From: Cetorhinus maximus
Lineage: Eukaryota
Reading direction: 5' to 3'
Assembly: GCF_964194155.1 (NCBI RefSeq)
Contig: NC_135901.1
Coordinates: 21,266,001-21,330,000, forward strand
Length of the DNA: 64,000 nucleotides
In this document: in pieces, positions 25,517 to 56,669 of the stretch
Layout of the letters: every line of letters begins with the position of its first letter
How positions within the stretch are numbered: position 1 is the stretch's first letter
Position numbers and translations under genes: made by a program
The notes under the pieces: generated by a model
Database searches by the model: none
What the model saw: the letters and a program-made list of their open reading frames with translations, nothing else
Told to the model about the DNA's origin: nothing

Positions 25517-27743
25517 AAACAAAAACAGAAATACCTGGAAAAACTCAGCAGGTCTGGCAGCATTGGCGGAGAAGAGTACAGTTGACGTTTCGAGTCTTCA
25601 TGACCCTTCAACAGAACTGAGTAGAAATAGGAAAGGGGTGAAATATAAGCTGGTTTAAGGGGGAGGCGGGGGGGGGGGGGGGGGGGGTTGGGGGAGAAGG
25701 GGGGGGCGTTGTTGGGACAAGCAAGCAGTGATAGGAGCAGATAACCAAAAGATGTCACAGACAAAGGAACAAAGAGGTGTTGAAGGTGGTGATATTATTT
25801 AAAAGAATGTACTAATTAAGATTGGAGAGCAGGACGAGCAAGGTAGCTCTAGTGGGGGTGGGGTGAAATAAACCATGGGTGGAATACATTTTAAAATAAT
25901 GGAAATAGGTGGGAAAAGAAAAATCTATATAAATTATTGGAAAAAACAAAAGGGAGGGGGAAGAAACGGAAAGGGGGTGGGGATGGAGGAGGGAGTTCAA
26001 GATCTAAAGTTGTTGAACTCAATATTCAGTCCGGAAGGCTGTAAAGTGCCTAGTTGGTAGATGAGGTGCTGTTCCTCCAGTTTGCGTTGAGCTTCACTGG
26101 AACAATGCAGCAAGCCAAGGACAGACGTGGGCAAGAGAGCAGGGTGGAGTGTTAAAATGGCAAGCGCCGGGGAGGTCTGGATCATTCTTGCGGACAGACC
26201 GTAGGTCTTCTGCAAAGTGGTCGCCCAGTCTGCATTTGGTCTCTCCAATGTAGAGGAAACTGCATTGGGAGCAACGAATGCAGTAGACTAAGTTGGGTGA
26301 AATGCAAGTGAAATGCTGCTTCACTTGAAAGGAGTGTTTGGGCCCTTGGACGGTGAGGAGAGAGGAAGTGAAGGGGCAGGTGTTGCATATTTTGCGTTTG
26401 GATGGGGAGGTGCCGTAGGTGGTAGTTGAGGAGTAGGGGGTGATGGAGGAGTGGACCAGGGTGTCACGGAGAGAACGATCCCTACAGAATGCCACTAAGG
26501 GGGGTTAAGTGAAGATGTGTTTGGTGGTGGCATCATGCTGGAGTTGGCGGAAATGGCGGAGGATGATCCTTTGAATGCGTAGGCTGGTGGGGTGATAAGT
26601 GAGGACAAGGGGGACCCTATCATGTTTCTGGCAGGGAGGAGAAGGCGTGAGGGCGGATGCGCGGGAGATGGGCCGGACACGGTTGAGGGCCCTGTCAACT
26701 ACCGTGGGTGGAAAACCTCGGTTAAGGAAGAAGGAGGACATGTCAGAGGAACTGTTTTTGAAGGTAGCATCATCAGAACAGATGCGACGGAGGCGAAGGA
26801 ACTGAGAGAATGGGATGGAGTCCTTACAGGAAGCGGGGTGTGAGGAGCTGTAGTCGAGGTAGCTGTGGGAGTCGGTAGGCCTGTAATGGATATTGGTGGA
26901 CAGTCTATCACCAGAAATTGAGACAGAGAGGTCAAGGAAGGGAAGGGAAGTGTCAGAGATGGACCATGTAAAAATGATGGAATGATTCCCCTCTACGTTG
27001 GAGAGACCAAACGCAGACTGGGCGACCGCTTTGCCGAAGACCTTTGGTCTGTCCGCAAGAATGACCCAGACCTCGCTAGCGCTTGCCATTTTAACACTCC
27101 ACCCTGCTCTCTTGCCCACATGTCTGTCCTTGGCTTGCTGCATTGTTCCAGTGAAGTTCAACTGGAGGAACAGCACCTCATCTACCGACTAGGCACTTTA
27201 CAGCCTTCCGGACTGAATATTGAGTTCAACAACTTTAGATCTTGAACTCCCTCCTCCATCCCCACCCCCTTTCCGTTTCTTCCCCCTCCCTTTTGTTTTT
27301 TCCAATAATTTATATAGATTTTTCTTTTCCCACCTATTTCCATTATTTTAAAATGTATTCCACCCATGGTTTATTTCACCCCACCCCCACTAGAGCTACC
27401 TTGCTCGTCCTGCTCTCCAATCTTAATTAGCACATTCTTTTAGATAATATCACTACCTTCAACACCTCTTTATTCTTCTGTCTGTGACATCTTTTGGTTA
27501 TCTGCTCCTATCACTGCTTGCTTGTCCCAACAACCCCACCCACTTCTCCCCCCCCCCCCCCACCACTTTAAACCAGCTTATATTTCACCCCTGTCCTATT
27601 TCTACTTAGTTCTGTTGAAGGGCCATGAGGACTCCAAACGTCAACTGTGCTCTTCTCCACCGATGCTGCCAGACCTGCTGAGTTTTTCCAGGTATTTCTG
27701 TTTTTGTTTTGGATTTCCAGCATCCGCTGTTTTTTGTTTTTAT
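25517..27743. mobile_element. Penelope-like element, tail-out inverted repeat (left arm - 25517-26981; right arm + ~26989-27743)
   Basis: GIY-YIG 'LVYCIRCSQCSFLYIGETK' and RT thumb 'LPFLDLSV..HYRPTDSHSYLDYSSSHP'; arms are reverse complements; TSD cagaatatgc(c/a)cta at 25503-25516 and 27744-27757. Confidence 0.9.
25579..25619 (-). ncRNA. Minimal type I hammerhead ribozyme motif (core variant CUGUUGA)
   Basis: CAGTT-CTGTTGA-A-GGGTC-ATGAA-GACTC-GAAAC-GTC-AACTG: helix I 5 bp, helix II 5 bp, palindromic ACGT helix III. Confidence 0.7.
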
Positions 27744-28890
27744 CAGAATATGCACTATCCGCGCTGCAGTAAGAATTTACGCAGGCGCATTACCAGGTAT
27801 GACTCGGGCATGCGCCTTGTGGCGGTTTTGCAGAGCATGCGCACTGGCGGCTACACGAGGAATCGGTCGAAGGAGCTGAGTGCAGGCCGGTAAATTAGAA
27901 GCCGGTAGATGGGGAGGATTGGAGGCGGCGGAGTGGGCAGCGAGTCTTTATAAACATTCACCAGAGGCTTCAACGCCCGAATAAGGAGCTAGTGGTCCCG
28001 TGGTTGCAGCGAACGGACGGGGAGGCGGCTGTGGGCCGCGGTTCTCGGTCAGAAGCCGGAGCTAACGGCCCCATCGTTCCAGGGGCCAAAGTGCATCAGA
28101 GCGCATGCGCAGCCGCCATCTTTACAGGGACAGTGTGCAGCACGGCGCATGCGCGGTCGTCTCTGTCAGCAGGAGGAGAGAATGTTTTGAAATTCTATCC
28201 TGGACTGACAGGGATTGATTTTGGAAACTCCTTTTACAGGGGGATAGAAGGGGAGGATTTACACACGGCAAACGCAAACCAAGAGAAATATTTGTCTCTT
28301 CTGGTATTGGTCTTTAAAATCCTCATTAGGATGGGCATGTCGATGTGGACAGAATGTTTCCACTTGTTGGTCTGCCCGTTACTGGGGGCCGTGTATACAC
28401 AATAGTTACAAATAAATCCAACAGGAAAACTGGAGATATATCTTTCCTCAGGCAGTAATTAGAAGGTGGAACTCACGACTGCAGGAAGTGGTTGAGAGAA
28501 ATACCTGAGACTCTTTCAAAAAGAAACTAGATGAGAACATGAGAGAAAAGGAATTAGAAAGATGTGCTGAAAGACTGAGCTGAGGTCAGCAGAATAGGAG
28601 GAGACTTGTGTGGAGTAGAATCTCCAGTACAGACTAGATAGACTGAATGGCCTGTTTGTATAATGTATATTCCATGTAATTCTTTGTAAACTTATTTTAC
28701 AGGGTAATGGAAGAGGAGATTTAACGGTCAGGAAAATCAAACCAAACCTCACGCCTGATAGAGTCAGTCGGTTCATTGGGATCTGAAGATTTGTACATCT
28801 GAAGGGATTTAATTGACCGTCTCAGCTGGAAACTAGTGACAGGCTGTTCACCTGCTCCTCCTGTTGGAAGGAATTAAAAAGCTGGTCAAC

Positions 28891-30402
28891 ATGCTGACAC
28901 GACAGCGCGCTCGCAATAGTGAGAGTCCGTTCACCTGCTCCGTTTGTGGGAAGAAATTCATGTGTTCATCCAACCTGCTGGCACACCAGCTAGATCACTT
29001 TGATGAGAAACCTCTTCAGTGCCCTAACACTGGGGAAAGCTTTGAAACCCCTGAGGAACTGGTCCAACACCAGCGAGTTCACACTGATGAGAGACCGTTC
29101 AGTTGCTCCCACTGTGGGAAGAGGTTCAGGCTGTCCTCCCGCCTCGCGGAGCACCAGCTCCTTCACACACACGAGAGGCCGTTCAGCTGCTCTCACTGTG
29201 GGGAGTCATTCAGCGAGTCAGTACATCTCACTGAGCACCAGCGAGTTCACACCAAAGACAGGCCATTCAGCTGCCCCCAGTGTGGGAAGAGATTCGCTCA
29301 GTCTTCCCATTACACTGAGCACCAATTGGTTCACTCCGATAAGAGACCTTTTAAATGCTCAGAATGTGAAAAGACCTTTAAAAGATGCAGGGAACTGCTG
29401 AGACACCAGTGCACTCACACCAGCGAGAGGCCATTCACTTGCTCCGTGTGTGGGAAGAGCTTCACCCGTGCAGTTCAACTTCTGAAGCACGAGGGTGTTC
29501 ACACTGGGGAGAGGCCATTCACCTATTCCATGTGTGACAAGAGAGTTTCTGAATCCTCCCAATACACTGAACACAAACACGTTCACTCTGGTAAGAGAAC
29601 TTTTAAATGTTCTGAATGTGAGAAGACCTTTAAAAGAAGCAATGACCTGCTGATACACCAGCGCATTCACACTGGGGAGAGGCCGTTCTTCTGCACTGAG
29701 TGTGGGAAGAGATTCACTTGGTCATCTAATCTGGTGGAGCACCAGCGCACTCACACTGGGGAGAGGCCGTTCCTCTGCTCTGACTGTGGGAAGAGATTTG
29801 CTCATTCATCTGATCTGGTGAAACACCAGCGAATTCACACCGGGGAGAGACCGTTCACCTGCTCTGAGTGTGGGAAGACATTTACTCGCTCATCCCACCT
29901 GCTGACACACCAGCGGGTTCACACAGGGGAGAGGCCGTTCACCTGCTCTGAGTGTGGGAAAGGATTCACTCAGTCATCCAACCTGTGGATACACCAACAA
30001 GTTCACACTGGGGAGAGACCGTTTCTCTGCTCTGAGTGTGGGAAGGTATTCAGCCGGTTAGCCAACCTGTTGAGACACCAGCGAGTTCACACTGAAGAGA
30101 GACCTTTTAAATGCTCTGACTGCGGGAAGTGCTATAAAACTTCTGGAGAACTGATGCACCATCAACGTGTTCACACTGAGAAGAGACCGTTCAGATGCTC
30201 TCACTGCAAGACTGGGTTCAGGAAATCATCTCAACTCACTTTACACCAGCGAATTCACACTGGGGAGAGGCCGTACACCTGCTCCGAGTGTGGGAAGGGA
30301 TTTACTTGTTCACACCACCTGCTGAGACACCAGCGAGTTCACAGGTCACCGGCAACGTTGGATTTTCTCGTTTTTGCTGCTGAGAATAACGTCCAGGACT
30401 GA
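28891..30402 (+). CDS. C2H2 zinc-finger protein (unit F), 17 finger repeats (15 intact)
   Basis: First ATG at 28891 within ORF 28864..30402; acceptor AG at 28701-28702; C-terminus extends into the family 3' UTR motif. Confidence 0.9.
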   Translation: MLTRQRARNSESPFTCSVCGKKFMCSSNLLAHQLDHFDEKPLQCPNTGESFETPEELVQHQRVHTDERPFSCSHCGKRFRLSSRLAEHQLLHTHERPFSCSHCGESFSESVHLTEHQRVHTKDRPFSCPQCGKRFAQSSHYTEHQLVHSDKRPFKCSECEKTFKRCRELLRHQCTHTSERPFTCSVCGKSFTRAVQLLKHEGVHTGERPFTYSMCDKRVSESSQYTEHKHVHSGKRTFKCSECEKTFKRSNDLLIHQRIHTGERPFFCTECGKRFTWSSNLVEHQRTHTGERPFLCSDCGKRFAHSSDLVKHQRIHTGERPFTCSECGKTFTRSSHLLTHQRVHTGERPFTCSECGKGFTQSSNLWIHQQVHTGERPFLCSECGKVFSRLANLLRHQRVHTEERPFKCSDCGKCYKTSGELMHHQRVHTEKRPFRCSHCKTGFRKSSQLTLHQRIHTGERPYTCSECGKGFTCSHHLLRHQRVHRSPATLDFLVFAAENNVQD

Positions 30403-30524
30403 ACCTTTTCTCCTTTCTAACTCTAGATTATTTCAGTTCTCATACCCTCGGTTACTCTCATGGACAAGTCCCAGCTCCTCATACCTTCCAGAGTGCCTCT
30501 CCTAGCCTTGGGATCCAGGAAAGT

Positions 30525-31275
30525 GTAAGATTTTTGATTTGGGAGCCACAGATACCTTAGAAAGGCAGTCAACTATTTGTAAGTAATTTTAAGATAGTTT
30601 ATTAATAAAAAGACAGTTTAGACACGATGCACGAGCTAATTAGACAGAAAAAGTATATGATCTGTGATAGTTGAGAGCAGTTTACTGATCCCAGAGGACA
30701 AACGGACGGTTGGCACAGAGAGCATTGATCTCAGTAGTTTGTGATAACAGCATTCTGCTCTCTAACCGAAGTGTTAGGGAACTCTTCCTTTGGTCTTCCT
30801 CCTCCTTTTCCATCTGGAGAAGGCGGCTGCCTGATGAGCACTGCCACCTCACCAGCCCTGCCCCCTGTCCCTGAGCACTTGTTGATATAACCTTTTCCTG
30901 GTGGCTTACCCAGTGTCAATCATCTATTCAGACCCGTCTATCCAATGGAAACAGGACAGGTACCCAAAATGTCAGGGTGGTTACCTCCTCCCCTGTTCGT
31001 CGCCGTGCTCCAGGTCAGTTTTTTAGTTTCCGACATGCTGAGCGTCATTTCCTGGCCTATTCTAAACACTTGCATGGATAAGGGGGTACACAAGACACCA
31101 TCCTACCAACTTAGGAATGTTAACATGTCAGCCTGAACCAAGTGACCTTGCCGTTTCCAGGGAATGTTTCGTGTTGTTGCCTGTTTAGAAATTGCCTTTC
31201 CAGAAGTTGCCTTTATGGAGGGAGAAAATCAATGCTGTTGAGCTAATTTCATAGAGCTCTATCCTGTGCAGAAAT
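30525..31275 (-). mobile_element. Probable solo LTR
   Basis: Starts TGTAAGA; minus-strand AATAAA (~30600) and TATA-like (~30887) in LTR order; related fragment at 20315-20480; right boundary uncertain. Confidence 0.4.
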
Positions 31276-31294
31276 ACCAATTTATTAAAGTTTG

Positions 31295-32530
31295 TTTTGG
31301 GAAGGTCACGTTTGACAAATTTGATTGAATTTTTTGAGGAGATAACCAGGAATGTTGATGAGGGTAATGCCTTTGATGTGGTCTACATGGACTTTAGCAA
31401 GGCTTTTGATAAGGTCCCTCATGGCAGACTGGTCAAGAAAGTAAGAGCCCAAAGGCAAAGTGGCATGTTGGATCCAAAACTGGCTGAGAGGCAGGAAGCA
31501 GAGGGTGATGGCACAGGGATGTTTCTATGACTGGAAGTCTATTTACAGTGGGCTCTGCAGAGCTCAGTGCTGGGGCCCTTGCTGTTTGTGCTATATATCA
31601 ATGATTTGGACTTAAATGTAGGGAGCATGATCAAGAATTTCACGGATGACACGAAAAGTGGCAGGGTGGTAAATAGTGAGGAGGATTGCCGTAACTGCAG
31701 GAGGGTATCAATGGACTGGTCTGGTGGGCAGAGCAGTGGCAAATGGAATTCAACCTAGAAAAGTGTGAGTTAATGCACTTGGGGAGAGCTAACAAGGCAA
31801 GGGATTACACTGTGAACGGCAGGACCCTGGGAAGTACTGAAGATCAGAGGGAACTTGGTGTACATATCCACAGATCCCTGAAGGTAGCAGGGCAGGTAGA
31901 CAAGGTGGTTAAGAAGGCATACGGGATACTTGCCTTTATTAGCCAAGGCATAGAATACAAGATCAGGGAGGTTATGCTGGTACTGTATAAAACGCTGGTT
32001 AGGCCACAGCTGGAGTGCTGTGTGCAGTTCTGGTCACTACATTACAGGAAGGATGTGATTGCACTGGAGAGGGTGCAGCCTGAGCTGGAGAGTCTGAGCT
32101 ATGAGGAAAGATTGGATAGGCTGGGGTTGTTTTCCTTGGAGCAGTGAACGTTGAGAGGGGACCTGATAGAGGTGTATAAGATTATGAGGGGCAGAGATAG
32201 GGTGGATAGGAAGGCACTTTTTTCCATTAGTAGAGGGGTCAATAATCAGGGGGCAGAGATTTAAGGTAAGAGATAGAAGGCTACGAGGGGAGTTGAGGTG
32301 AAATTTCTTCACCCAGAGTGGTGGGAGTCTGGAACTCATTGCCTGAAAATGTGGTTGAGTCAGAAACTCTTGTAACATTAAAGAAGTATTTAGATATTCA
32401 CTTCTGTTGCCATAGCCTCCAGGGATATGGGCCAAGTGTTGGAAAATGGGATTAGTGTAGTCAGATCTTTGTTGATTTGTGCAGGCATGATGGGCCGAAT
32501 GGCCTCCTCCTGTGCTGTAAACGTCTGTGA
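31295..32530 (+). mobile_element. CR1 LINE, 5'-truncated, RT to 3' UTR
   Basis: 'LTNLIEFFEE..VYMDFSKAFDKVPH', 'LGPLLFVLYINDL', 'LYKTLVRPQLECCVQFW'. Confidence 0.9.
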
Positions 32531-32549
32531 GTCTGAGAGTCTAAATCCC

Positions 32550-32760
32550 ACCATCGGAGACACCAGCGAGTTTACAGATGGCTGCAGGAGTTGGATTTTG
32601 CTATTCATCACGTCCAGGACGGAGCCATGTTCATTGGGGTCTTTTTCTGTTGATGTTATTAAGTTCCAGCCGAGTTATAGATGTCAATATCTGGATAAAA
32701 GTCAAATAAATCAGCTTTATAAACACATCGGGTGATGAGTCATTTTAATATTTCTAACAC
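32550..32760 (+). pseudogene. Orphan ZNF 3' end (last finger residues plus 3' UTR and polyA signal)
   Basis: 'gagacaccagcgagtttac..ggttggattttgctattcatcacgtccaggac..aaataaatcagcttt' matches the 3' ends of D, G and J. Confidence 0.7.
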
Positions 32761-32764
32761 AGGT

Positions 32765-33190
32765 TACTTCCTTGATTGGCACCCAATCCACCACTGTAAA
32801 CATTCACTCCTTCCATCACCGACACACAGTGGCAGCAATGTGTACCATCTACAAGATGCACTGCAACAACTCACCAAGGCTTCTTCAACAGCTCCTTCCA
32901 GCAACCCCTACCGAAGGACAAGGGAGCAGATAGATGGGAGCACCACCACCTGGAGGTTCCCCTCCAATCCAGTCACCAACCTGACTTGGAAATATATCCC
33001 GTTCCTTCACTGTCACTGAGTCAAAATCCTGGAACTCCTTCCCTAACAGCACTGTGGGTGTACCTACACTACATGGACTGCAGTGGTTCAAGAGGATGGC
33101 TCACACCACCTTCTCAAGGGCAGTTAGGGATGGGCAATAGATGCTGGCCTAGCCAGTGACGCCCACTTCCTGTGAACGAATAAAAAAAGT
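32765..33190 (+). mobile_element. HER1-type LINE 3' end
   Basis: Colinear with 22350-22775. Confidence 0.8.
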
Positions 33191-33194
33191 GCTG

Positions 33195-35940
33195 TCCATC
33201 TCCCCTGTCTCCATCCTCATCTCCAACAACAAGTGCGAAGACCTCATGGAGCTTCTTTGTCACAAAGATTGAGACAATTTGATCAGCTGCTTCCCTCCCT
33301 TCCACTAGCCCACAAGGCCAAACTCTCTCTAAAGTTCCCCCTTGTCTGAGCCCTGAACTCACATCTTTCTCCAGTTTCTCTCCTATCTCCCATCATGTCC
33401 TGTCAGAGCTCATCTTATTCACCTCCTAGTCCCTCGACCCTATTCCCACTAAGCTGCTGACCATCCACCTTGCCCAAAGTACTGGGGAAATCGCCTGGAC
33501 AGTATCAGCTGCCACTGTGGATTCACGGTTGAGGAGTTGTTGAAAATGTTCTTTCCTGTGTTGATGGATGATATTGTCATCCCCAAGGAGAGAAACACCA
33601 TCCTGTGAGTGAAGGGGATTTTGTCCATTATCTTGGTCTATTCATGGCCCTGGTGGCTTCAAAAAGCTTTGCTTGTCGTGATGGTCAGCGTATTGTTGGG
33701 TATCTCGGGCTTGCTCCTCCCACCACTTGTACTTTATTGTCTTTGGCCGTCAGCTTTGAGCTGTTGGAACTCTGCCTTCTTGCCACCTCGGGTTGTTCTG
33801 CAGGGCAATGAAGGTTCATTTTTGTTACAGGAGGTCACATTTTGAACATCATTTTCATTGAACCAGTCCTGGTGACGACGATGCTCGAACCCAATGGTCT
33901 GGGAACAGGAGTCTTGTACAGCTGACTTCATCCGATCCCAACGTTCTGAGAAGAAACGACACAGACCAAATGGTACAATTTTGAAGAGGATGCAGAAAAG
34001 GACAGACTTGGGTTTGTTTGTGCACAAATCTCTGAAGGTGTGAGGACAGGTTAACAAACAGTCAATGAAGCAGACGGGATGCTGGGCTTTATAAGCAGAG
34101 ACAGAGAGTACAAAGGTCAGGAAGTCTCACTATAAAAAACATTATTTCTGCCCCGTCTGGAGTATTGTGTCCAATTCTGAGCATCACATTGTAGGGAGGA
34201 CATGAAAGCTTTGGAGAGGGCACAGAGGAGATGGATCACAGGACCACGGATCAATAAGAGAACCTGGGGCTGTTCTCCTTGGAACAGAGAAAGTGAAGAG
34301 GAGATTTGATAGACCTGCTTAAAATCATGAAGGGTTTAGATAGAGTGAATAAGGAGAAAATATTTCCAATGGCCAATGGGTTTGATAACCAGAGGACATT
34401 GATTTAAAGTGATTGGCAAGAGAACCAGAGGCATCAGGAGGAAATCTTTTCAGTAACAAGTGGTTAGGATTTGGAATGCACTGTCTGATGGGGCGATGGA
34501 TACCGGTTCAAGAGTGATCTTCAAAAGGGAATTGGATAAATATTTTAAGGAGAAATGATGCAGGGATGGGATAAAGAATGGGGGAGTGGGACTAACTGGA
34601 TTGCTCATCGAAAGTTACCAGCACAGATTCAATAGGCCAAATGGCCTCTTTCTCTGGTGTACTATTAAGAGATTCCATGATTTATAATACAATGATTCAT
34701 AATAAACATGATATGATAGAATCATAGAGCATGGACGGTGGCCATTCAGCCCGTTGTCCCTGTACTGTGCCTGAAAATGTTACCAATCTGTCCCACTCCC
34801 CTGCTCTTTTCCGATCGCCCTCCAAATCTTTCCTTATGAGATAAAAGTCCAAATCACTTTTGAAAGTTACTATTGAATCTGCTTCTACCAATCATTCCGA
34901 CAATGAAAACAATGACTTCGGTCTTCCCGATATTTAATTGGAGGAAATTTCTGGACACCCACCACTGGATGTCAGACAAACAGTCTGATCCTTTACCAAG
35001 AGTGGAGAAGTTGAGAGAGGTGGTGGTGAGGCAGAACTGGGAGCTGTCAGTGTAAATGTGATAACTGACAAGAGTTTTCAGATTATGTCATTGTTTGGAG
35101 CAGATTAATGAGAAATAAGAGGAGACCAAGGTGTATCCTTTGGGGATACCAGCGGTAACTGTGGGAGTGGGAAGGGAAGACATTACGAGTGATTCTCTGA
35201 CTATGATTCGATAGAGAAGAATGGAACCAGGAGACAGCAGCCCCACCCAGCTGGACGACAGGGGAGAGGTGAAGGTGCAGAATGATGTGGTCAACATTGT
35301 CAAAGGCTGCAGACAGGTCGAGGACGAGAAGGGAGAGTTTATCTTTGTCACAGTCACATAGGGTGTCATTTGTGACTTTGATAAGAGTTGTTTCAGTACT
35401 GTGGCAGGGGCAGAAACATGATTGGGAGGATTCAAAGATGGAGTTCTGGGAAAGATGGGCAGGGATTTGGGAGGTGACAGCATGTTCAAGGACTTTGGAG
35501 AAGAAAGAGAGGCTGGAGATGGGACAGTAGTTTAGGAGGATGGTGGGGTCAAGGATTTATTTTTTGAGAAGGGTATAATGATGGTAGATTTGAAGGTGAG
35601 AGGGACAGTACCTGAGAGAGAAAATTGTTAGCATAGTCAGTGAACATGGAGAAGTTGAGTGATCAGTAGTTTAGTGGGAATAGGGTTGATGAAGGAGGTG
35701 GGACAAGATGAGCTCTGAGAGGGCCTGAGGTGAGATGGGAGGGAAACTACAGAAAGATGTGAGTTCAGGGGTCAGGCAACAGGGAAATTTAGAGAAAGTT
35801 CAGCCCCGTGGGCTAGTGGAAGGGAGGGAAGCAGCAGAGGCAGCTGATCAGATTGTCTCAATCTTAGTGACAAAGAAGCTCCATGAGCTCCTCACACTTG
35901 TTGAAGGTGCGGATGGAGGAGACGGGGAGAGGGAGAGCAC
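33195..35940. mobile_element. Nest of L2 (33195-33470 +; 34900-35940 -), RTE-like (33480-33950) and CR1 (33960-34890) fragments
   Basis: L2 segments are reverse complements of each other; 'RRHQDWFNEND' is RTE-like; CR1 3' ends are recognisable. Confidence 0.7.
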
Positions 35941-36152
35941 TTCAAAAAGAACTAACCTGAGTTAGAGATATTCAAAAAACCTCAATGGATTTGCGTTTAA
36001 CACAAAGCTGCTTATTTGATTTTTATCAAAAATATTAGCCCCTGTAAGTGGTCTGGAGGTTAGTAAAATCAGCAGAAATAGACTCCATTGAACATGGTTC
36101 AGTCCTGGATATGATTAACAGCAAAATCAAATCACTGTAGTTACTTATGAAT

Positions 36153-40545: not shown

Positions 40546-40549
40546 AGGG

Positions 40550-41386: not shown

Positions 41387-41612
41387 AAAAGCAAAATACT
41401 GCAGATGCTGGAAATCTGAATTAGCAACAACAAAAAATAGTTAACACATCTGCTAACATTTTTGGAGAGGGAGACATAGTTTACATTTCAGGTCTATAAC
41501 CTTTCATCCTAACTGCACCACATCAGTTCATAGACCTGAAACGTTAACTCTGTTAATCAATCTCCAGATGCTGCCAGATATGCTGAATACTTCCAGCATT
41601 TTCTGTTTTATC
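41387..41612. mobile_element. Miniature PLE tail-out inverted repeat
   Basis: Both arms derive from the PLE 3' end; left arm carries the tail; degenerate HHR remnants. Confidence 0.7.
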
Positions 41613-42875: not shown

Positions 42876-42877
42876 GT

Positions 42878-43250: not shown

Positions 43251-43254
43251 TTAT

Positions 43255-44350: not shown

Positions 44351-44354
44351 TGGG

Positions 44355-45080
44355 AGGATTGATTGCTTAGCAAGCAGAAAGGCACCCAGCAAGGATGAAA
44401 TTCCAGCTGAACCGCTCAAGCACAGAAAGTCCCATCTACTGCCTCACCTTCATGATCTCTATTTTCTCGGTTGGAACATAGGATCCATTCCACAGGACAC
44501 GTGTGATGCAAGGATCATCACAATAAACAAGAACAAAGGTGACAGGAGATTTCAGCACCTACAGGGACATCTTACTCCCTCACGTCACTGGGAAGACCTG
44601 TGCTGGGTTATGCTTAGAGACTTCATCTACTTGCAGACCAAGTACATCCAGAAGCACAGTGCAGTTTCTGTGCTTCTGGAGAGTGGGAGATGTCTGTCTC
44701 ACAGGAATACAGCTCACAGTAGTGTTCAATCCAGTGAGACATTTGTTTACTTCCATCGGTGAGAACTTCACCATATGCTGATTTCACGGGGTTAATTTTG
44801 GTGATGGTCAGACCATGTGCCTTTGACCCCATCATCCATAACACGGAGGTTTCTATTGGCACAGGCAGTTTGGATTTCTTGACATAGGCTGATCCACTGT
44901 TTATTTACACAGGATCTCCCTGTATTTTGCACAACTGTCGTGGCTACTTTCAAGTTATGCAGTGCTCTTGCTGTTGGGTCTCAAACCAATCTCTGTTGTG
45001 GGTTCCACCGTTACCAAATGTTGCTGCTGCTGTGTCAGAAATGATTGAACTCAGCGACTTCCAAGCTTCATCAATATCAA
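44355..45080. mobile_element. RTE-clade LINE fragment, internally inverted (+ 44355-44680, - 44680-45080)
   Basis: 'RKAPSKDEIPAEPLK..DARIITINKNKGDR' and 'HWIEHY' are RTE motifs; paralog at 46690-48335. Confidence 0.7.
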
Positions 45081-45082
45081 TG

Positions 45083-45291
45083 AAATCAAAATACTGCGGA
45101 TACCGGAGATCTGAAACAAAGACAGAAAGTGCTGACAAACTCAGCAAGTCTGGCAGCATCTGTGGAGACAAAAACACAATTAATGTTTTGAGTTCAACAG
45201 TCATATTCAACTCGAAGCGTTAACTCTGTTTCCCTCTCCAAGGATGCTACCAGACCTTCTGAGTTTTTCAAGCATTTTCTCCTTGTGTTTA
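45083..45291. mobile_element. Miniature PLE tail-out inverted repeat with 13-bp TSD
   Basis: atca(a/g)tatcaatg at 45070-45082 and 45292-45304; single-copy empty site in the paralogous arm at 46686-46698. Confidence 0.8.
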
Positions 45292-45763
45292 ATCAGTATC
45301 AATGTTGATTGATGACGCTTTTATTGATGTCCCTGTAAAATATTTTACTGTTGTGTTTAATGTTCCTTATTAATTTAATTTCATAAAGAAGGTGTAACTG
45401 AAGAAGAATGTGCAAGTCAGTAACAATTGTCAGCAAAGATTAATCAGCACTTTCTAATTGGAGATGTTAATCAGTGGAACCTTTCAGACACTGAATTGTA
45501 GATTTTACACCAAAGATCAATTTAGGATTGAATTAAAAGTTCATAATTTTATTACAAATGAGTTTGTGTTAAGAGATCTTGAGGATTAAGGGGAAAGATC
45601 ACAGGTTGTATGTTTAAAAAGGGATACTGCAGCCCTGAAAATCAGCAACATCTGCAGAATATTAAACTTCAGTCACTTATAGCGGTTGTAAACATCAGCA
45701 GAAACAAACCAAATCCTGGATGAGATTAGCAGCAACAATAGCAGCAAAATCCAACCCCTGTAA

Positions 45764-46280: not shown

Positions 46281-46930
46281 TTCTATATTTCCATATCAGG
46301 TTTGTTCCTGCTTATGTTAACAACCCCTATAACTGGCTGGAGTTTAACATTCTGGAGATGTCAATAATTTTCACGGCTGTCCCTTTTTAAAAGCCATGAA
46401 AGATCTGTGATCTTTCCTCTCTCAACTGGAACTCGTTTACAATAAAGTAATGAACTTTCACTTCAATCCTAAATTGGTCTTTGGTGCAAAATCTACAATT
46501 CAATGTCTGAAAGGTTCCATTGATTAACATCTGCAATTAGAAAGTGCTGATTAATCCTTGCTGACAATTCTTACTCACTTCCACATTCTTCACCGTGACA
46601 CCTCCGTTATGAAATTAAGTTATCAAAGAAGAATCAAAATAGTAAAATATTTTACAGGCACATTAATAAAAGCTTCATCGATCAACATTGATACTGATGA
46701 AGCTTGGAAGTCGCTGAGTTCAATCATTTCTGACACAGCAGCAGCAACATTTGGTTAAGGTGGAACCCACAACAAAGGCTGGTTTGAGAACTGATCAACA
46801 GATATGATATCTGTCATTGAAGTAAAAAGCAAAGCCTACCTGATGCACAACATAGACCCAACAGCTAGAACATCTTGTAACTTGAATGTAGCCAAGACAG
46901 TTGTGTAAAAAACAGGGAGATACTGTTCAA

Positions 46931-48334: not shown

Positions 48335-51300
48335 GAAGTTGGAGGAAGAAGGAAGGAAGAGCATAGTGACAGGGGATTCATTAGTTAAGGGAACAGAGCG
48401 GTGTTCCTGCGGCCATAAACATGACTCCAGGATGGTATGTTACCTTCTTGGTGCCAGGGCCAAGGATGTCACCGAGTGGGTGAGGGACATTCTTTTGGGG
48501 GAGGGTGAACAACCAGAGGTCGTGGTCCACGTTGGTACCAATGACTTAAGTAGGAAGAGGGATGTGGCCCTGCAGACGGAATTTAGGGAGCTAGGTAGAA
48601 AATTAGCAAGCAGGACCTCAAATGTAATATTCTCCATATTATTTCCAGTGCTATGTGCAAGTGAGCATAAAAATAGGATAAGGCAGATGAATGCGTGGCT
48701 GGAAAGATGTTGCAGGAGGGAGGGCTTTAGATTCCTGGGACACTGGGAGTGGCTCTGAGGGAAAATGGCACCTGCACAAGCCGGAAGGGTTGCACCTGAA
48801 CAGAGCCAGGACTGAGCTCCTTGATGTGTGTTTGCTAGTCTTGTTGTGGGGGTTGGGGGAGGCTTCAAACTAATTCAGCAGGGGTGTGGGAACCAGGAGA
48901 GAATATTAGAGAGTAATAATAAGCTGCAAAAAATACTGGGAGAGACAGATAACATGAGAATAGCAAATAGTAAGGAAATAGGCACAATCGGAGTGAGGGT
49001 GAAAGTAATGCACTCAAAATCAGGGTTATACTATATGTATGTGAATGCACGGAGTATAGTAGATAAGATTGCTGAGTTACAGGTGCAGATTGCCATGTGG
49101 AAATATTACGCTGTGGCGATGACAGAGATCTGGCTCAGGGAAGGGGAGGACTGGGTGTTAACTATCCCTGGGTACAACATGTTCAGGAAAGGTAGGGCAG
49201 GAAGAAAAGGAGGGATGGGTGGCTGTATTGATTAAGGAAAGCTTTGCAGTGCTGGAGAATGAGGATGTCCAGAGAGTTCAAGGACAGAATCAATTTGACT
49301 AATGCCAAGGAACAAAAAGGGTGCAATTACATTGCTCAGTGTAATCTATAAACCGCCAACTAGTAGGAAGGATGTAGAGGAACAAATCTGAAGGAAAATA
49401 GCAGAGAGTTGCAAACATTATAGAGTAGCTATAATGGCGAACTTTAATTTCCTGAATATAGACTGGGATAGTGGCAGTGTAAAGGGTAGAGAGGGGCATG
49501 AGTTCCTAGGGTGTGTTCAGGCAAATTTTCTACAGCAGCATGTGTCCAGTCCAACAAGAAAGGAGGCACTGCCAGACCTGGTTTTTGGAAACGATGTGAG
49601 CCAAGTAGATCAGGTGTCAGTGGGGGAACATTTAGGAGACAGTGATTATTGTATCATAAGGTTTAGGATGATGCTAGAAAAGGACAATGTGCAATCCAGA
49701 GTAAGAATAATTAACTGGGGGAGCGCTGACTTCAATGGAGCAAGAACAGAACTGGGCCGGATAGACTGGAACCAAAGGTTGGTGGGAAGACGTAGCTGAA
49801 CAATGGGCTACCTTGAAAGAAGAAATGATTCTGGCAGAGTCAAGGTATATTCCCTCAAAAGGGAAAGGTAGGGCAATTCAGAGCTCCCTGAATGAAAAAT
49901 GAGATAGAAATTAAGATAAAGAAGAAAAAATGTGCTGATGACAGGTGTCAGGTAGAAAATACAATTGGGAACTAGTCGGACTACAGAAGAAGGTTCAGAG
50001 GGGAGATGAAAATGCAAATAAGAGAAGCAAAGAGGGATCATGAGAAAAAAAACTGGCAGCCAACATAGAGAGGAATGCCAAAGTCTTCTATAGGCACATA
50101 AAACGATGGTAAAAGGAGGAGTAATGTCAATTAGGGACCAAAAGAAAGGATTACACATGGAGGCGGGGGCATAGCTGAGGTGTTAAATGAATACTTTGCA
50201 TCTGTCTTTACCAAGGAAGCAGATGCTACCCAGGCCACGGTGACAGAGGAGGAACCTCTGTCGCTGGAAGGGTAAAAAATTGATAAGGGGGAAGTGTTGG
50301 TTGAACTGTTGGTACTTAAAGTTGACAAGGCACCGGGACTGGATGAGATGCATCCAAGGATATTGAAGGAAGTTATAGTAGAAATTGCAGGGGCACTGGC
50401 CATAATCGTTCATTCTTCCCTTGACTCAGGGGAGGTGCCAGAGGACTGTAGAATTACAAACATTACGCCCTTGTTCAAAAAAGGTTGTAAGGATAAGCCC
50501 AACATTTACAGACCAGTCAGTTTAACTTCTTTGGTGGGGAAGCTTCTAGGGAAAATTATTTGGGATAGAATTAATCATCACATAGAAGAATGTGAGTTGA
50601 TTAGGAAGAGCCAGCAACGTTTTCTAATGGGGAACAAAACCAAGAATTGCTGGAAAAACTCAGCAGGTCTGACAGCATCTGTGGAGAGGAAAACAGAGTT
50701 AACGTTTCGAGTCCATATGACTCTTCATCAAAGAGAAATAGAAATATGGTGAAATATAAGCTGTTTAATGGGGGGTTGGACAGGTGGTGGTGGATAGAGG
50801 GCCAGTGATAGGTGGGGGCAAAGGAGAGATTACCAAAGATGTCATAAACAAAAGGTCAAAGGGGTGTTGACGGTGGTGATATTAGCTAAGGAATGTGCTA
50901 ATGGTGACATTAAGGATAAAAAGCAGGATGAGCAAGTGACAGATGGCCCTAGTGGGGGTGGGGTGGGGGTAGGGGATCGAAATAGGCTAAAAGGTGGGGA
51001 TAAAGCAATGAATGGAAATAAATTTTTAAAATAATAGTAGAAATAGGTGGGAAAAGAAAAAATGTATATATAAAAAATGTATAATAATTATTAGAAAAAA
51101 GGGGATCAAAAAGGGTGAGGATGGAGGAGGGAGTTCATGATCTGAAGTTGTTGAACTCAATGTTAAGTCTGGGAGGCTGTAACGGACTCGAAACATTAAC
51201 TCTGTCTTCCTCTCCACAGATGCTGTCAGACCTGCTGAGTTTTTCCAGCAATTTTTGGGTTTTTGTTTCAGATTTCCAGCATCTGTAGTATTTTGCTTTT

Positions 51301-52555
51301 TTCTAAAGGGGAAATCGTGTTTAACTAACTTGCTAAAGTTCTTTGAAGAGGTAACAGAGAGGGTTAATGAGAGTAATCCTTTTGAACTGTTTATGGACTT
51401 TCAAAAGGCATTCAATACAGTGCTGCACAACAGACGTGAAAAATGTTATAGCTGATAGAATAAAAGGGACAATAGCAACGTGAATACAGAATTGGCTGAG
51501 TAATAGGAAACAGAGAGTAATGGTCAATGGATATTTTTCTGACTGGAGGAAGGTTTCTAGTGGAGTTCCCCAGAGGTCGGTATTGAGATCCTTGCTTTCT
51601 GTGACCAATATTAACGACCTAGATCTTAGTGTGCAGGGGAAAATTTCAAAATTTGCGGATGATACTAAACTTGGAAGCATTGTAAACTGTGAGTATAGAA
51701 CTTCAAAAGGACATGGACAAGGTGGTGGAGTGGGCAGACAGATGGCAGATGAAGTTCAATGTGGAGAAGTGTGAGATGATGCATTTTGATAGGAAGAACA
51801 TGGAGAGACAATGTAAAATAAGGGGTACAATTCTTAAGGGGGTGCAGGACCAGAGGGGCCTGGGTGTATATATGCATAGATCATTAAAGGTGGCAGGACA
51901 GGTGAAGAGAGCTGTTATTAAAGCATACAGTATTCTAGGTTTTTTAAACAGGGGCATAGAGTACAAGAACAAGGAGGTTATGCTGAACTAATATAAGACA
52001 CTAGTTAGACCTCATCTGGAGTATTGTGTACAGTTCTGGGTGTCACAGTATAGGAAGGATGTGAATGCATTTGAGAGAGAGTGAAGAAGAGGTTTACAAG
52101 AATGGTTCCAGGGATGAGAAACCTCAGTTATGAATATAGATTGGAGAGGTTGGGACTGTTCTCCTTGGAGAGGAGAAGGCTAAAAGGAGATTTAATAGAG
52201 ATGTTCAAAATCATGAGGGGCTGGATAGACTAGATAGGGATAAACTGTTCCTGCTCATAAAAGGATAGAGAACAAGAAGGCACTGATTTAAGGTGGTTTA
52301 CAAAAGAAGCAAATGTGATGTGAGAAAAAAACTTATTCACTCAGCGAGTGGTTGGAGTCTGGAATGTACTGCCTGGAAGTGTGTTGGAGGCAGGCTCAAT
52401 TGAGGCATTCAATAGGGCATTGGGTGATTATCTGAATAGAAACAATGTGCAAGGCGACAGGGAAAAGGCAGAGAGCGGCACTAAGTCATAATGCTCATTT
52501 GGAGAGCCAGTACAGGCAGGTTGGGCATCCCTCTGTGCCATAACAATTCTGTGTT
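48335..52555 (+). mobile_element. Near full-length CR1 LINE: ORF1 SGNH-esterase, APE endonuclease, RT, 3' UTR; decayed and interrupted by a PLE
   Basis: 'IVTGDSLV..VVVHVGTND..EGLHLN' (esterase); 'YVNARSI..AMTEIWL', 'HLGDSD' (APE); 'GVPQRSVL..KFADDTKL' (RT). Confidence 0.9.
50635..51298. mobile_element. PLE tail-out inverted repeat (left arm ~545 bp, right arm ~115 bp) inside the CR1 RT
   Basis: TSD ttttctaa(t/a)ggggaa at 50620-50634 and 51299-51313 duplicates the CR1 F-L-K-G codons. Confidence 0.85.
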
Positions 52556-52559
52556 TCTG

Positions 52560-53140
52560 TGATTATCAGAAGGGATTTGAGATCCCAGTTTGAGCTGGAA
52601 ACTCATGGGTAAAATCATGAAAAGGTCATTCACCAGCTCAATGTGGAAAAGACTCATAAAAAAGCCACATACTGCGGATGCTGGAAATCTGAAATAAAAA
52701 ATGCTAGAAAAACTCAGCAGGTTTGGCAGCATCTGTGGAGAGAGAAACAGAGTTAATGTTTCGAGTCCGTATGACTCTTCTTTAGAAGAAGTGATTCACT
52801 CGGTCACCCCATTCGCTGACACAGCAACACAGTTACACCTGAGAGAGGCCATTCAGATACTACATTTGTGCAAAGGGATTTACTCACTTTGCCCACCTGT
52901 TAACACTCCAGTTTTAAACGTTCAGAGGCTTTGATCCAAAATTGCTACATTCCTATTGACAACACAGAGTTTGAATGTTCTGTGTATGGGAAGAAAAGTC
53001 ACTTGTTCAAACTGCCGACTGAGAGTCCAGTGAGTTCACAACTAACCATAGGTGTATGTTCTGTTGTTAATTATACCGGGACAGAACTATGGTGGAGGGC
53101 GAGTACACTTTGGTTGCCGTTTCAATTGACTTAATAATTT
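52560..53140 (+). pseudogene. Highly decayed ZNF 3' end upstream of a promoter, with a PLE fragment at ~52656-52785
   Basis: Finger-like remnants 'gattcactcggtcaccccattcgctgacacagcaacacagttacacctgagagaggccattc'; homologous to 41000-41360 (-) and 25250-25450. Confidence 0.6.
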
Positions 53141-53145
53141 TACAT

Positions 53146-53400
53146 AACACAAACTCAGAAAGTGCTGGAAAAACTCAGCAGGTCTGACAGCATCTGTGGA
53201 GAGAGAAACAGACTTGACGCTTCAAGTCTGGATGATTCTTCTTCAGAGCTGAAGAAGAGTCAGCTCTGAAGAAGAGTCATACGGACTCGAAACATCAAGT
53301 CTGTTTCTCTATCCACAGTTGCTGTCAGAACTGCTGAGTTTTTCCAGCATTTTCTGTTTTTGTTTCAGATTTTCGGCATCCGCAGAATTTTGCTTTTATG
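53146..53400. mobile_element. Miniature PLE tail-out inverted repeat with canonical HHR core CTGAAGA at 53266
   Basis: TSD ataatttta(c/t)at at 53134-53145 and 53401-53412; empty site at ~25401. Confidence 0.8.
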
Positions 53401-54000
53401 ATAATTTTATATCTTGGCCCTGTGGCTCCAATCAGCATCGGATCACAAAACATAATTTTCTGCTGAACAAAATCACATTTCAATGGCAGCCTGTTTACCC
53501 AGCATTCGCCGCGGGGCGGAATGGACCCTATTCTTTTTACAAAACAAAAACAGAATTACCTGGAAAAACTCAGCAAGTCTGGCAGCATCGGCGGAGAAGA
53601 AATCAGTCAACGTTTCGAGCCTCCATGGCCCTTCGGCAGAACTGCAGCATAGTTTCAACAAGGGAGAAATATAAATTGGTTTAAGGTGGGTGGGGGGCGG
53701 GGGGGAAGAGACACATTGAGGGTGTGGTGTGAGCAGATAATAATCAAAAGATGTCAGAGACAAAAGGGTCAAAGAGGTGTTGAAGGTGGTGGTCTTTGTC
53801 TGAGAAAAGTGCTAATTAAGAATGGAAGACAGGATATTCAAAGTACAGCTCTAGTGGGGGTGGGGTGGAAAGACTAAAGGTTTTAGTTTTAGATTTAAAA
53901 ATAATGGAAATAGGTGGGGAAAGAAGAATCTATATAAATTATTGAAAAAAAGCGGGTGGAGGGGGAAAAGAAACGGGGTGGGGATGGGGGGAGGGGGAGT

Positions 54001-55281
54001 TTAAGATCTAAAGTTGTTGAATTCAATATTCAGCCCAGAGGGCTGTAAAGTGCCTAGTCGGAAGATGAGGTGCTGTTCCTCCAGTTTGCGTTGGGCTTCA
54101 CTGGAACAATGCAGCAAGCCAAGGACAGACATGTTGGCAAGAGAACAGGGTGGAGTGTTAAAATGGCAAGCGACAGGGAGGTTTGGGTCTTTCTTGCGGA
54201 CAGACCGCAGGTGTTCCGCAAAACGGTGGCCCAGTTTGCGTTTGGTTTCTCCAGTGTAGAGGAGACCGCATTGGGAGCAACGAATGCAGTAGACTAAGTT
54301 AGGGGAAATGCAAGTGAAATGCTGCTTCACTTGAAAGGAGTGTTTGGGCCCTTGGACGGTGAGGAGAGAGGAAGTGAAGGGGCAGGTGTTGCATCTTCTG
54401 CGTGGGCATGGGGAGATGCCATAAGTGGGGGTTGAGGAGTAGGGGGTGATGGAGGAGTGGACCAGGGTGTCCCGGAGGGAACGATCCCTACGGAATGCCG
54501 TCAAGGGGGGTGAAGGGAAGATGTGTTTGGTGGTGGCATCATGCTGGAGTTGGCGGAAATGGCGGAGGATGATCCTTTGAATGCAGAGGCTGGTGGGGTG
54601 ATAAGTGAGGACAAGGGGGACCCTATCATGTTTCTGGGAAGGAGGAGAAGGCGTGAGGGAGGATGCGCGGGATATGGGCCGGACACGGTTGAGGGCCCTG
54701 TCAACGACCGTGGATGGAAAACCTCGGTTAAGGAAGAAGGAGGACATGTCAGAGGAGCTGTTTTTGAAGGTAGTGTCATCAGAACAGATGCGACGGAGGC
54801 GAAGGAACTGAGAGAATGGGATGGAGTCTTTACAGGAAGCGGGGTGTGAGGAGCTGTAGTCGAGGTAGCTGTGGGAGTCGGTAGGCTTGTAATGGATATT
54901 GGTGGACAGTCTATCATCAGAAATTGAGACAGAGAGGTCAAGGAAGGGAAGAGAAGTGTCAGAGATGGACCATGTGAAGATGATGGAGGGGTGGAGATTG
55001 GAAGCAAAATTAATAAATTTTTCCAGGTCCCGACGAGAGCATGAAGCAGCACCGAAGTAATCATCGATGTACCGGAGAAAGAGTTGTGGGAGGGGGCCGG
55101 AGTAGGACTGGAACAAGGAATGTTCCACATACCCCATAAAGAGACAGGCATAGCTGGGGCCCATGCGGGTACCCATAGCCACACCTTTTATTTGGAGGAA
55201 GTGAGAGGAGTTAAAGGAGAAATTGTTCAGTGTGAGAACAAGTTCAGCCAGACGGAGGAGAGTAGTGGTGGATGGGGATTG
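54001..55281 (-). CDS. 5'-truncated PLE polyprotein (RT C-terminal half + GIY-YIG endonuclease), frame still open
   Basis: Part of ORF 54001..55398; no native start because the N-terminal ~39 aa come from the inverted arm. Confidence 0.8.
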   Translation of the reverse strand, partial: QSPSTTTLLRLAELVLTLNNFSFNSSHFLQIKGVAMGTRMGPSYACLFMGYVEHSLFQSYSGPLPQLFLRYIDDYFGAASCSRRDLEKFINFASNLHPSIIFTWSISDTSLPFLDLSVSISDDRLSTNIHYKPTDSHSYLDYSSSHPASCKDSIPFSQFLRLRRICSDDTTFKNSSSDMSSFFLNRGFPSTVVDRALNRVRPISRASSLTPSPPSQKHDRVPLVLTYHPTSLCIQRIILRHFRQLQHDATTKHIFPSPPLTAFRRDRSLRDTLVHSSITPYSSTPTYGISPCPRRRCNTCPFTSSLLTVQGPKHSFQVKQHFTCISPNLVYCIRCSQCGLLYTGETKRKLGHRFAEHLRSVRKKDPNLPVACHFNTPPCSLANMSVLGLLHCSSEAQRKLEEQHLIFRLGTLQPSGLNIEFNNFRS

Positions 55282-56354
55282 TTTTCCATCCACGGTCGTT
55301 GACAGGGCCCTCAACCGTGTCCGGCCCATATCCCGCGCATCCTCCCTCACGCCTTCTCCTCCTTCCCAGAAACATGATAGGGTCCCCCTTGTCCTCACTT
55401 ATCACCCCACCAGCCTCCGCATTCAAAGGATCATCCTCCGCCATTTCCGCCAACTCTAGCATGATGCCACCACCAAACACATCTTCCCTTCACCCCCCTT
55501 GACGGCATTCCGTAGGGATCGTTCCCTCCGGGACACCCTGGTCCACTCCTCCATCACCCCCTACTCCTCAACCCCCACTTATGGCATCTCCCCATGCCCA
55601 CGCAGAAGATGCAACACCTGCCCCTTCACTTCCTCTCTCCTCACCGTCCAAGGGCCCAAACACTCCTTTCAAGTGAAGCAGCATTTCACTTGCATTTCCC
55701 CTAACTTAGTCTACTGCATTCGTTGCTCCCAATGCGGTCTCCTCTACATTGGAGAAACCAAACGCAAACTGGGCCACCGTTTTGCGGAACACCTGCGGTC
55801 TGTCCGCAAGAAAGACCCAAACCTCCCTGTCGCTTGCCATTTTAACACTCCACCCTGTTCTCTTGCCCACATGTCTGTCCTTGGCTTGCTGCATTGTTCC
55901 AGTGAAGCCCAACGCAAACTGGAGGAACAGCACCTCATCTTCCGACTAGGCACTTTACAGCCCTCTGGGCTGAATATTGAATTCAACAACTTTAGATCTT
56001 AAACTCCCCCTCCCCCCATCCCCACCCCGTTTCTTTACCCCCCCCCACCCGCTTTTTTTTCAATAATTTATATAGATTCTTCTTTCCCCACCTATTTCCA
56101 TTATTTTTAAATCTAAAACTAAAACCTTTAGTCTTTCCACCCCACGCCCACTAGAGCTGTACTTTGAATATCCTGTTTTCCATTCTTAATTAGCACTTTT
56201 CTCAGACCACCACCTTCAACACCTCTTTGACCCTTTTGTCTCTGACATCTTTTGATTATTATCTGCTCACACCACACCCTCAATGTGTCTCTTCCCCCCC
56301 GCCCCCCACCCACCTTAAACCAATTTATATTTCTCCCTTGTTGAAACTATGCTG

Positions 56355-56395
56355 CAGTTCTGCCGAAGGGCCATGGAGGCTCGAAACGTTGACTG
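56355..56395 (+). ncRNA. Minimal type I hammerhead ribozyme motif (core variant CUGCCGA); mirror copy at 53604-53644 (-)
   Basis: CAGTT-CTGCCGA-A-GGGCC-ATGGA-GGCTC-GAAAC-GTT-GACTG; helix II covaries relative to the 25579 copy. Confidence 0.7.
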
Positions 56396-56669
56396 ATTTC
56401 TTCTCCGCCGATGCTGCCAGACTTGCTGAGTTTTTCCAGGTAATTCTGTTTTTGTTTTGTTTTGGATTTCCAGCATCCGCAGTAGCTTTTAGCTTTTTGT
56501 TTTTATCCCTATTCTTTTTATTCATTCACGGGATGTGGGCGGCTGGTTGAGAGGAGATCCTTGCGCAGGCGCAGTACCGGGCAGCGACAGGCACATGCGC
56601 AGTGTGAGCTCAAAGCGGAGCATGCGCAGTCCATAGAGTCCGGAGCTGACCGAAGGACTGAGAAATATC

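Follow-up and report, generated by a model that had tools for sequence, protein, structure and literature searches.

Paired inverted insertions of a Penelope-like element in Cetorhinus maximus and their probable origin by double priming

Introduction

Penelope-like elements (PLEs) coding for a GIY-YIG endonuclease (EN+ PLEs) have been described, in the available portions of PMC3846280 and PMC8557442, as inserting together with an inverted, 5'-truncated copy, with a tail at one end and a target-site duplication (TSD) around the unit. The mechanism of the inversion is there called undefined, or is ascribed to self-priming on an antisense template or to endonuclease-mediated resolution; the origin of the tandem and inverted insertions and of the one-sided tail is likewise called undefined in the field's papers (PMC8557442, part of the text). 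Here we analyse a 64-kb stretch of Cetorhinus maximus DNA (contig NC_135901.1, positions 21,266,001 to 21,330,000; hereafter the window), which holds six inverted insertions of one such element, E1 to E6, and compare them with copies of the same family across the 4-Gb genome. Each pair typically joins one tailed arm (T) to one untailed arm (U), and we propose that these T+U insertions arise from a staggered cut of 14 nt, both ends of which prime reverse transcription on a single RNA, at two sites that bound the tail. We give this reading a probability of about 0.65.

In L1 retrotransposition by twin priming, an account reportedly due to Ostertag and Kazazian in 2001, the second primer lands mid-RNA and the resulting arms barely overlap. 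The second overhang primes on the same RNA and leaves an inverted arm within one TSD, according to the part of the review PMC9148063 that treats it. Closer to the present case is PAc, a Poseidon element of the green anole, whose protein cuts and extends both strands in vitro and initiates at two internal sites bounding the tail; in the text available, PMC11167929 predicts a dimer and leaves the later steps of integration open.

Positions marked r are those of a natural full-length copy (L035, 6204-9500), in which the tail spans r3251-3297; all other positions, unless a locus is named, are those of the window.

Inverted pairs join one tailed and one untailed arm

An earlier note, made from the letters of the window, had reported six insertions, and all six are present: each is a head-to-head pair of 5'-truncated arms with their 3' ends outward, and in 6/6 exactly one arm is tailed. 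The six are a selection, the window also holding four single T arms absent from that note. Genome-wide copies were collected in four samples: the 40 best matches to the tailed end of E6 (A, tail-biased); the first 100 matches of a 34-mer from the body of the young subfamily (B) and the first 100 of a body 29-mer (C), both blind to the tail; and 35 further loci from the first 100 full-tail matches (D), which served as a held-out set. All samples together gave 292 complete clusters, and the tail-unbiased samples B and C gave 147. Short or diverged partner arms can escape BLAST, as in 2 of 61 apparent singles. Two 10-kb stretches that are 99.99% alike and lie 42 kb apart on one contig (L040 and L041), which are a recent duplication or an assembly duplicate, were counted once.

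The 147 tail-unbiased clusters comprised 63 simple T+U pairs, one U+U, one T+T, 41 single U arms, 20 single T arms and 21 complex arrangements. T+U thus accounts for 63 of 65 simple pairs, for which independent site choice gives P ~6e-17, and the T+T and U+U combinations that chance would supply are rare. Among all 292 clusters there were 127 simple pairs: 115 T+U, 7 T with some other end, 3 U+U and 2 T+T. Old, diverged pairs show the same pattern. Within 7 kb of 100 body matches, neighbours were tail-out in 27 cases and tail-in in 4, and the sole tail-out neighbour pair among 100 tail matches was T+U with an internal pseudo-long terminal repeat (pLTR). The T+U observation is confirmed, and it holds in samples from across the genome.

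Nor are the 3' endpoints random. Where a young pair has a perfect 14-bp TSD, its T arm starts at r3289-3302 and its U arm at r3227-3257 of the reference copy. Single arms of either kind, which the earlier note omitted, number 61 in the tail-unbiased sets and are as common as pairs; their U ends (median r3253.5) share a common peak with those of pairs (median r3251.5). The occurrence of 41 single U and 20 single T arms implies that each site can prime by itself. In tandem full-length copies (L035, L047) the 47-nt tail continues into the 5' end of the open reading frame (ORF) unit, so both 3' ends correspond to internal sites of the RNA.

Two minor classes were set apart. Second arms ending at r3184-3197, adjoining a hammerhead-like motif and with TSDs of 11-14 bp, occur in L045, L046, L101 and L261, and may mark a minor third start site. 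In L178 and L215 a young copy sits within an older one of opposite strand, which gives the look of an inverted pair; arm identity told such cases apart.

A 14-bp target duplication with dyad symmetry

The 110 young complete clusters include 60 T+U pairs, every one of them with a TSD; when flank pairs were shuffled, 11/300 showed one. The lengths peak at 14 bp, with 31 duplications of exactly 14 bp and 51 of 13-15 bp, and a TSD of at least 13 bp is present in 56/60 pairs but only 4/37 singles. The flanks of the 14-bp duplications are mirror-symmetric, reading 3' of each inferred nick: position +3 is a pyrimidine at 92 of 94 inferred nicks, and at 24/24 in the held-out set D. At the other positions (n=94), +1 is G in 53, a count biased by TSD calling, +5 is G in 46 and +7 is a pyrimidine in 77. 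When a matrix of this motif was scanned over different spacings, held-out pairs with other called TSD lengths scored best at 14; a plain tally of positions said nothing about where the second nick lies in single arms. From these flanks we infer that both nicks are made with the same specificity and leave 14-nt 3' overhangs, which would be kept whole if both prime.

Inner junctions and priming sites

The inner junction was read base-exactly in 31 of 54 pairs. Nineteen of these lack an insert, and 15 of the 19 show at least 2 nt of microhomology (null 15%); ten have inserts of at least 5 nt, seven of which match nearby sequence, a count that carries no null model. Loopless palindromic junctions lie on self-complementary words in L182, L216 and L187, and in L203 the junction is loopless with both arms starting at the same base, while the T arm lacks 409 nt present in the U arm. 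One junction position recurs (L050, L142), with the T and U sides swapped, and the other 52 differ. At the outer ends, TSD and RNA have 2.3 nt in common at the T site, with a null of 0.5, and 0.85 nt at the U site (null 0.46, within the null range).

Both arms share a source and often a 5' end

Arms from different subfamilies, the signature of independent nested insertions, were not found; the two arms share a source lineage. At the two commonest polymorphic sites, alleles agree between arms in 30/32 pairs at r2965 (14.7 expected) and in 36/37 at r3036 (24.7 expected). Discordant polymorphic sites number 0.31 per kb between partners and 2.23 in random pairs, 21 variants are common to both arms and occur in no other copy, and in 80/80 pairs the partner arm matches at least as well as the median other copy. 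Gene conversion was considered as the source of this likeness and found insufficient: the common polymorphic sites agree in about 94-97%, against a sharing of only 6/44 CpG changes and 21/83 private non-CpG changes. An arm tree over 435 nt, with 3 of 42 inner branches well supported and the rest mostly unresolved, was not relied on.

The 5' ends of the two arms fall within 30 nt of each other in 27/54 young pairs (permutation mean 3.1, maximum 11), and these coincident ends are sign-symmetric, the U arm being longer in 11, the T arm in 11 and neither in 5. The longer U arm that the earlier note had taken from the largest insertions fails as a rule: over the same 54 pairs, the excess is greater than 30 nt for U in 16 and for T in 11. 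A hot spot of 5' ends at r3140-3150 (window about 56350-56360) holds 33 of 189 arm ends; away from it, 23/55 pairs still end together (mean 3.0). The word at the hot spot is initiator-like, and priming close to a transcript's 5' end may have given rise to short palindromic copies, E3 and E5 among them. Travel of two reverse transcriptases (RTs) in lock step was rejected, since it predicts ends about 47 nt apart, which were seen in 1/54, with no peak near +47.

Double priming on one RNA and its alternatives

The dyad motif, the coincident 5' ends and the shared haplotypes point to one RNA molecule, and the following sequence of events would produce the insertions observed. The GIY-YIG domains of a protein dimer, assumed here from the anole element, would place a nick in each strand, the two 14 nt apart and both immediately 5' of a G-N-pyrimidine-like motif; the motif and the duplication are seen directly, and nicking of this kind would leave two 14-nt 3' overhangs. 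One overhang, pairing over about 2 nt, would then prime where the tail ends and the other about 47 nt upstream; the two start sites are observed, and we suppose them to be loaded simultaneously. Both cDNAs would be copied from a common template, the one behind displacing the one ahead, and would often reach the same template end, with the shared haplotypes and coincident ends as the visible trace of a presumed single molecule and strand displacement. Finally, the two cDNA 3' ends would be joined through microhomology or by end joining with templated insertion, as the junction signatures suggest, by an enzyme whose involvement is presumed, and then filled in. If one end primed alone, a single T or U arm would result, with a TSD shortened or lost.

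Double priming had been proposed in the earlier note, and it is supported here, each of the contrary outcomes named there having been tested and none found. Priming of both ends on one RNA would account for the T+U rule, the shared alleles and the coincident ends together, at the cost of an assumed strand displacement and a shared template end.

Several points weigh against it. All the evidence consists of finished genomic products, with no intermediate seen, and no more than 31 of the 54 junctions were legible to the base. The in vitro data come from a protein of the Poseidon clade with an ATT cut preference, not of this clade (PMC11167929, in the text available). The missing 47-nt offset between 5' ends means that a common template end must be assumed. 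Shared haplotypes fit one RNA, two transcripts of one locus or DNA copying of an arm, and in 57 pairs 8 polymorphic sites disagree between the arms, E6 accounting for two. Single arms fit spacings of 12-14 with a peak at 13, not sharply 14. The U ends of pairs trail off toward short ends, 8/54 lying below r3244 as against 0/20 in singles (P 0.10), and an early-stopping copy-back would also yield such ends. One U+U pair has a clean 14-bp TSD (L221). A young T+T case (L036, 374-3468) mirrors 127 nt of host flank and has no TSD; it looks like a DNA fold-back, so that fold-back does occur.

The two ends might instead prime on two RNA molecules from one source locus, one held by each subunit. This would explain the shared haplotypes, the dyad motif and a TSD of the full 14 bp with no need for strand displacement, the few discordant sites fit it, and the short pairs ending at r3140-3150 would need no common molecule if the transcript starts there. 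We nevertheless consider it unlikely, since it offers no reason for T+U over T+T or U+U, nor for the 23/55 pairs that end together at scattered internal positions.

A fold-back origin, in which a tail-primed cDNA turns back, copies itself as far as the U site and joins the other target end, with later loss of the centre leaving unequal arms, had been excluded in the earlier note because the U arm can be the longer; that argument is insufficient alone, since a palindrome could lose its centre afterwards. Fold-back directly predicts the shared haplotype and the coincident 5' ends, and the somewhat more scattered U ends of pairs, the seven T+other pairs and L036 are in its favour. In its direct form, however, the T arm is always the longer, whereas the offsets favour neither sign and in 16/54 the U arm exceeds the T arm by a wide margin. 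As U-primed singles outnumber T-primed ones (41 to 20), U+U pairs should be common, and 1/65 was seen. The copy-back must also stop exactly at the site where singles prime, the loopless centres and L203 require extra events, and L036 itself ran through the tail into host DNA without leaving a TSD. On balance this route, too, seems improbable.

Self-priming on an antisense template, published as a proposal for rotifer PLEs (PMC3846280, in the portion available), would make the inverted junction before integration, and palindromic junctions do occur. It predicts neither fixed T and U ends that match the priming sites of single arms nor the TSD difference between pairs and singles, and the anole protein uses sense RNA as the template when priming from the two cut strands (PMC11167929, in the text available); we regard it as highly improbable here. 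Independent insertion at the same spot, or the copying of pre-existing palindromic source elements, is largely refuted by the single TSD and the unique junctions. The two nested look-alikes and the recurring junction position speak for these origins, but a single TSD encloses both arms in 60/60 pairs, the partner match described above holds in 80/80, and the recurring junction (L050, L142) has its T and U sides swapped while the other 52 differ. A fold-back artefact of assembly or sequencing is extremely improbable: long palindromes are error-prone in assemblies, but the arms differ by private changes, end at two fixed sites and lie within TSDs, empty paralogous sites exist, and old, diverged pairs show the same pattern.

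Comparison with known systems

The structure itself is known, and the earlier note understated this: the one-tail inverted architecture, and the use in vitro of two start sites with extension of both strands, had already been published. Like the EN+ PLEs in the available portions of PMC3846280 and PMC8557442, the element has head-to-head arms, a tail at one end, a TSD around the unit and partial tandems that form pLTRs. The TSD is there given as 8-10 bp or variable and the tail as present "often" or "optionally" at one end, whereas here the TSDs of pairs peak sharply at 14 bp with a dyad motif and T+U is near-obligate in pairs. PAc resembles the present family in the cutting and extension of both strands (here proposed), in the two internal start sites bounding the tail, and in the continuation of the tail into the ORF unit; its pLTR carries a hammerhead-like motif, a candidate for which is visible by eye here. 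PAc belongs to the Poseidon clade, prefers ATT, and has no stagger, TSD length, start-site difference between strands or account of inverted insertions in the available text of PMC11167929, where its start sites lie in an AC-rich stem-loop 111-118 nt into the ORF; those found here are T-rich and upstream of the ATG.

As in L1 twin priming, an inverted and a direct arm stand within one TSD and would come from one template. Here the second start, unlike that of L1, is fixed near r3250, some 47 nt away from the first, overlap between the arms is nearly complete, and pairs occur about as often as single arms; the L1-like arrangement corresponds only to the 7 T+other pairs among 127.

No statement of double priming as the origin of PLE inversions, of the T+U rule, of a 14-nt dyad target or of a shared haplotype was found in the literature consulted; the 2005 paper of Evgen'ev and Arkhipova, that of Arkhipova from 2006 and the supplementary figures of PMC11167929 may hold prior statements. 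The available parts of PMC3681739, PMC6431247 and bioRxiv 10.64898/2026.07.22.740005 add nothing here on the mechanism. The numbers and the one-RNA double-priming reading appear to be new; the mirror-symmetric motif around the 14-mer, the source haplotype common to both arms and the coincident 5' ends are new observations.

The family offers hundreds to thousands of near-identical copies, and the figures it supplies (a stagger of 14 nt, a cut motif with dyad symmetry, a pair of start sites separated by about 47 nt with one used at each end, and a shared template) make an open question of PLE biology directly testable in the existing in vitro system. Whether PLEs in general use a distinct integration route, with a dimeric RT-endonuclease, a fixed 14-nt dyad cut and both overhangs loaded in telomerase style on two dedicated RNA sites, we regard as evenly balanced. 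If they do, the tail would be the spacing between two active sites, the inverted pLTR would be the second cDNA, and double priming would be a normal pathway of the class, where in L1 it is an accident. It is likely that this one retrotransposon family sows many thousands of palindromes across the genome, which act as a source of double-stranded RNA and of instability and can be mis-annotated as DNA transposons or as hairpins resembling microRNAs.

Insertions in the window

The window covers a cluster of C2H2 zinc-finger genes that also holds fragments of LINEs. E6, whose arms are 98.65% alike, occupies 53540-56506 between perfect 14-bp TSD copies at 53526..53539 (+ strand) and 56507-56520. Its U arm lies on the left (53540..55280, - strand, r1509-3251) and holds the open 3' half of the RT, a CX4CxxC linker, the GIY-YIG domain and the pLTR. 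The body of the T arm (55281..56459, + strand) begins at r2070, contains a GIY-YIG match at 55460-55999 that passes the Pfam cut-off, and is followed by the 47-nt tail at 56460..56506 (+). E1 (25517-27743) also has U left and T right, with arms 92.3% alike. The U arm (25517..26981, -, r1805-3249) carries a broken 3' part of the RT-endonuclease region with the pLTR, and the T arm (26987..27743, +) runs from r2527 to the end of the tail; the 14-bp TSD copies at 25503..25516 (+) and 27744-27757 differ by 1 mismatch.

The remaining insertions are shorter. E2 is an old short pair at 41387..41612, with the T arm left (-) and the U arm right (+). E3 (45083-45291; 45070..45304 including the TSD) has T left and U right within a 13-bp TSD with 1 mismatch (45070-45082 and 45292-45304). 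E4 (50635-51298; 50620..51313 including a 15-bp TSD with 1 mismatch) lies within LINE-like sequence and consists of a U arm at 50635-51182 (-) and a T arm at 51184-51298 (+). E5 (53146-53400; 53132..53412 including the TSD) has U left, T right and a short duplicated stretch at its inner junction; its TSD can be read as 12 bp with 1 mismatch or 14 bp with 2. The TSDs of E1, E3, E4, E5 and E6 are thus readable and that of E2 is unreadable, as the earlier note had stated.

Its empty paralogous sites held for three insertions. In each of E3, E5 and E1 the two flanks align to a single paralogue, overlapping there once, by 13, 12 and 12 nt respectively; the sites lie at 46686..46698 (-) for E3, where the target occurs once, at 25401..25412 (+) for E5, and at 10060..10085 (+) for E1. 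The last is also the site for E6, where it is weak, the right flank aligning distally only. The targets of E1, E5 and E6 (25401-25516, 53132-53539, 10060-10085) occupy a nearly identical spot in paralogous units of zinc-finger genes, immediately upstream of sequence that is GC-rich and promoter-like, and the target 14-mers of E1 and E6 overlap by 5 nt; this spot is a possible insertion hot spot. The four single T arms lie at 12335..12448 (+, old), 52659..52786 (-), 56676..57065 (-) and 57481..57720 (-), the last with an 11-bp direct repeat at its ends, recognized by eye.

Identity of the element and related copies

The full-length copy L035 has a single 917-residue ORF with matches to RVT_1 (E 7.9e-7) and, C-terminal to it, GIY-YIG (E 4.7e-4), both slightly below the Pfam cut-offs, and with the motifs DKG and YIDD. 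The endonuclease core is of CCHH type, with a CxxC at residues 821-835 between GIY and YIG and histidines downstream, and a CX4CxxC linker at residue 783 precedes the core in 60 of 67 aligned proteins. In the part of PMC8557442 available, a CX2-5CxxC linker between RT and endonuclease defines Neptune and Nematis, clades that share the C-terminal GIY-YIG domain and its CCHH motif; by that definition the family's sequence identifies it as a Neptune/Nematis-type EN+ PLE. An initial reading as Poseidon was dropped, since the zinc-finger-like linker motif is present here and the Penelope/Poseidon clade lacks it (same source). Compared with Neptune and Nematis, no microsatellite targeting was seen in the TSDs examined.

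Homologues of the protein numbered 745 at E<=1e-20 among 8000 scored; among named matches, the highest identities were to two partial bamboo shark proteins (68% and 65%). A search of solved structures with the ORF gave no match, and a predicted complex of two copies of residues 1-175, with a score of 0.00 and an uncertain fold of its own, was not used. Genome-wide, the 29-mer directly before the U end occurs 39,698 times, continuing into one tail spelling in 17,299, and the 34-mer of the young subfamily 700 times. An upstream partial unit, giving a pLTR through partial tandems, is present in L035, L047, L214, L224, L252 and L253.

A hammerhead-like core with stem II is visible by eye in older copies, as in the T arm of E5 (53266..53293, +, with a 5-bp stem II). 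Minimum-free-energy folds lack the motif, and an Rfam scan found no hammerhead, giving at E5 weak hairpin matches to microRNA models alone. The motif is of the type in PMC4209133, which in the part available reports hammerheads paired on opposite strands at distances of 100-700 bp. The core is altered in the subfamily that is youngest and was last active (window 56360-56395 and young copies), so the ribozyme may be dispensable.

Near 45.24 Mb of another contig (L226, 3649-4794) lies a head-to-tail array of 267-nt units, each made of the pLTR end, the tail and the first 104 nt of the next unit, with a hammerhead-like motif; judged by this composition, the array is a retrozyme-like non-autonomous derivative of the element. 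Similar internally deleted units occur in L018, L110, L132, L227, L234 and L241, some as inverted pairs. PLEs are known to retain introns, and at 56435-56475 of the window a splice-donor-like word stands just before the U end, with an acceptor-like word within the tail.

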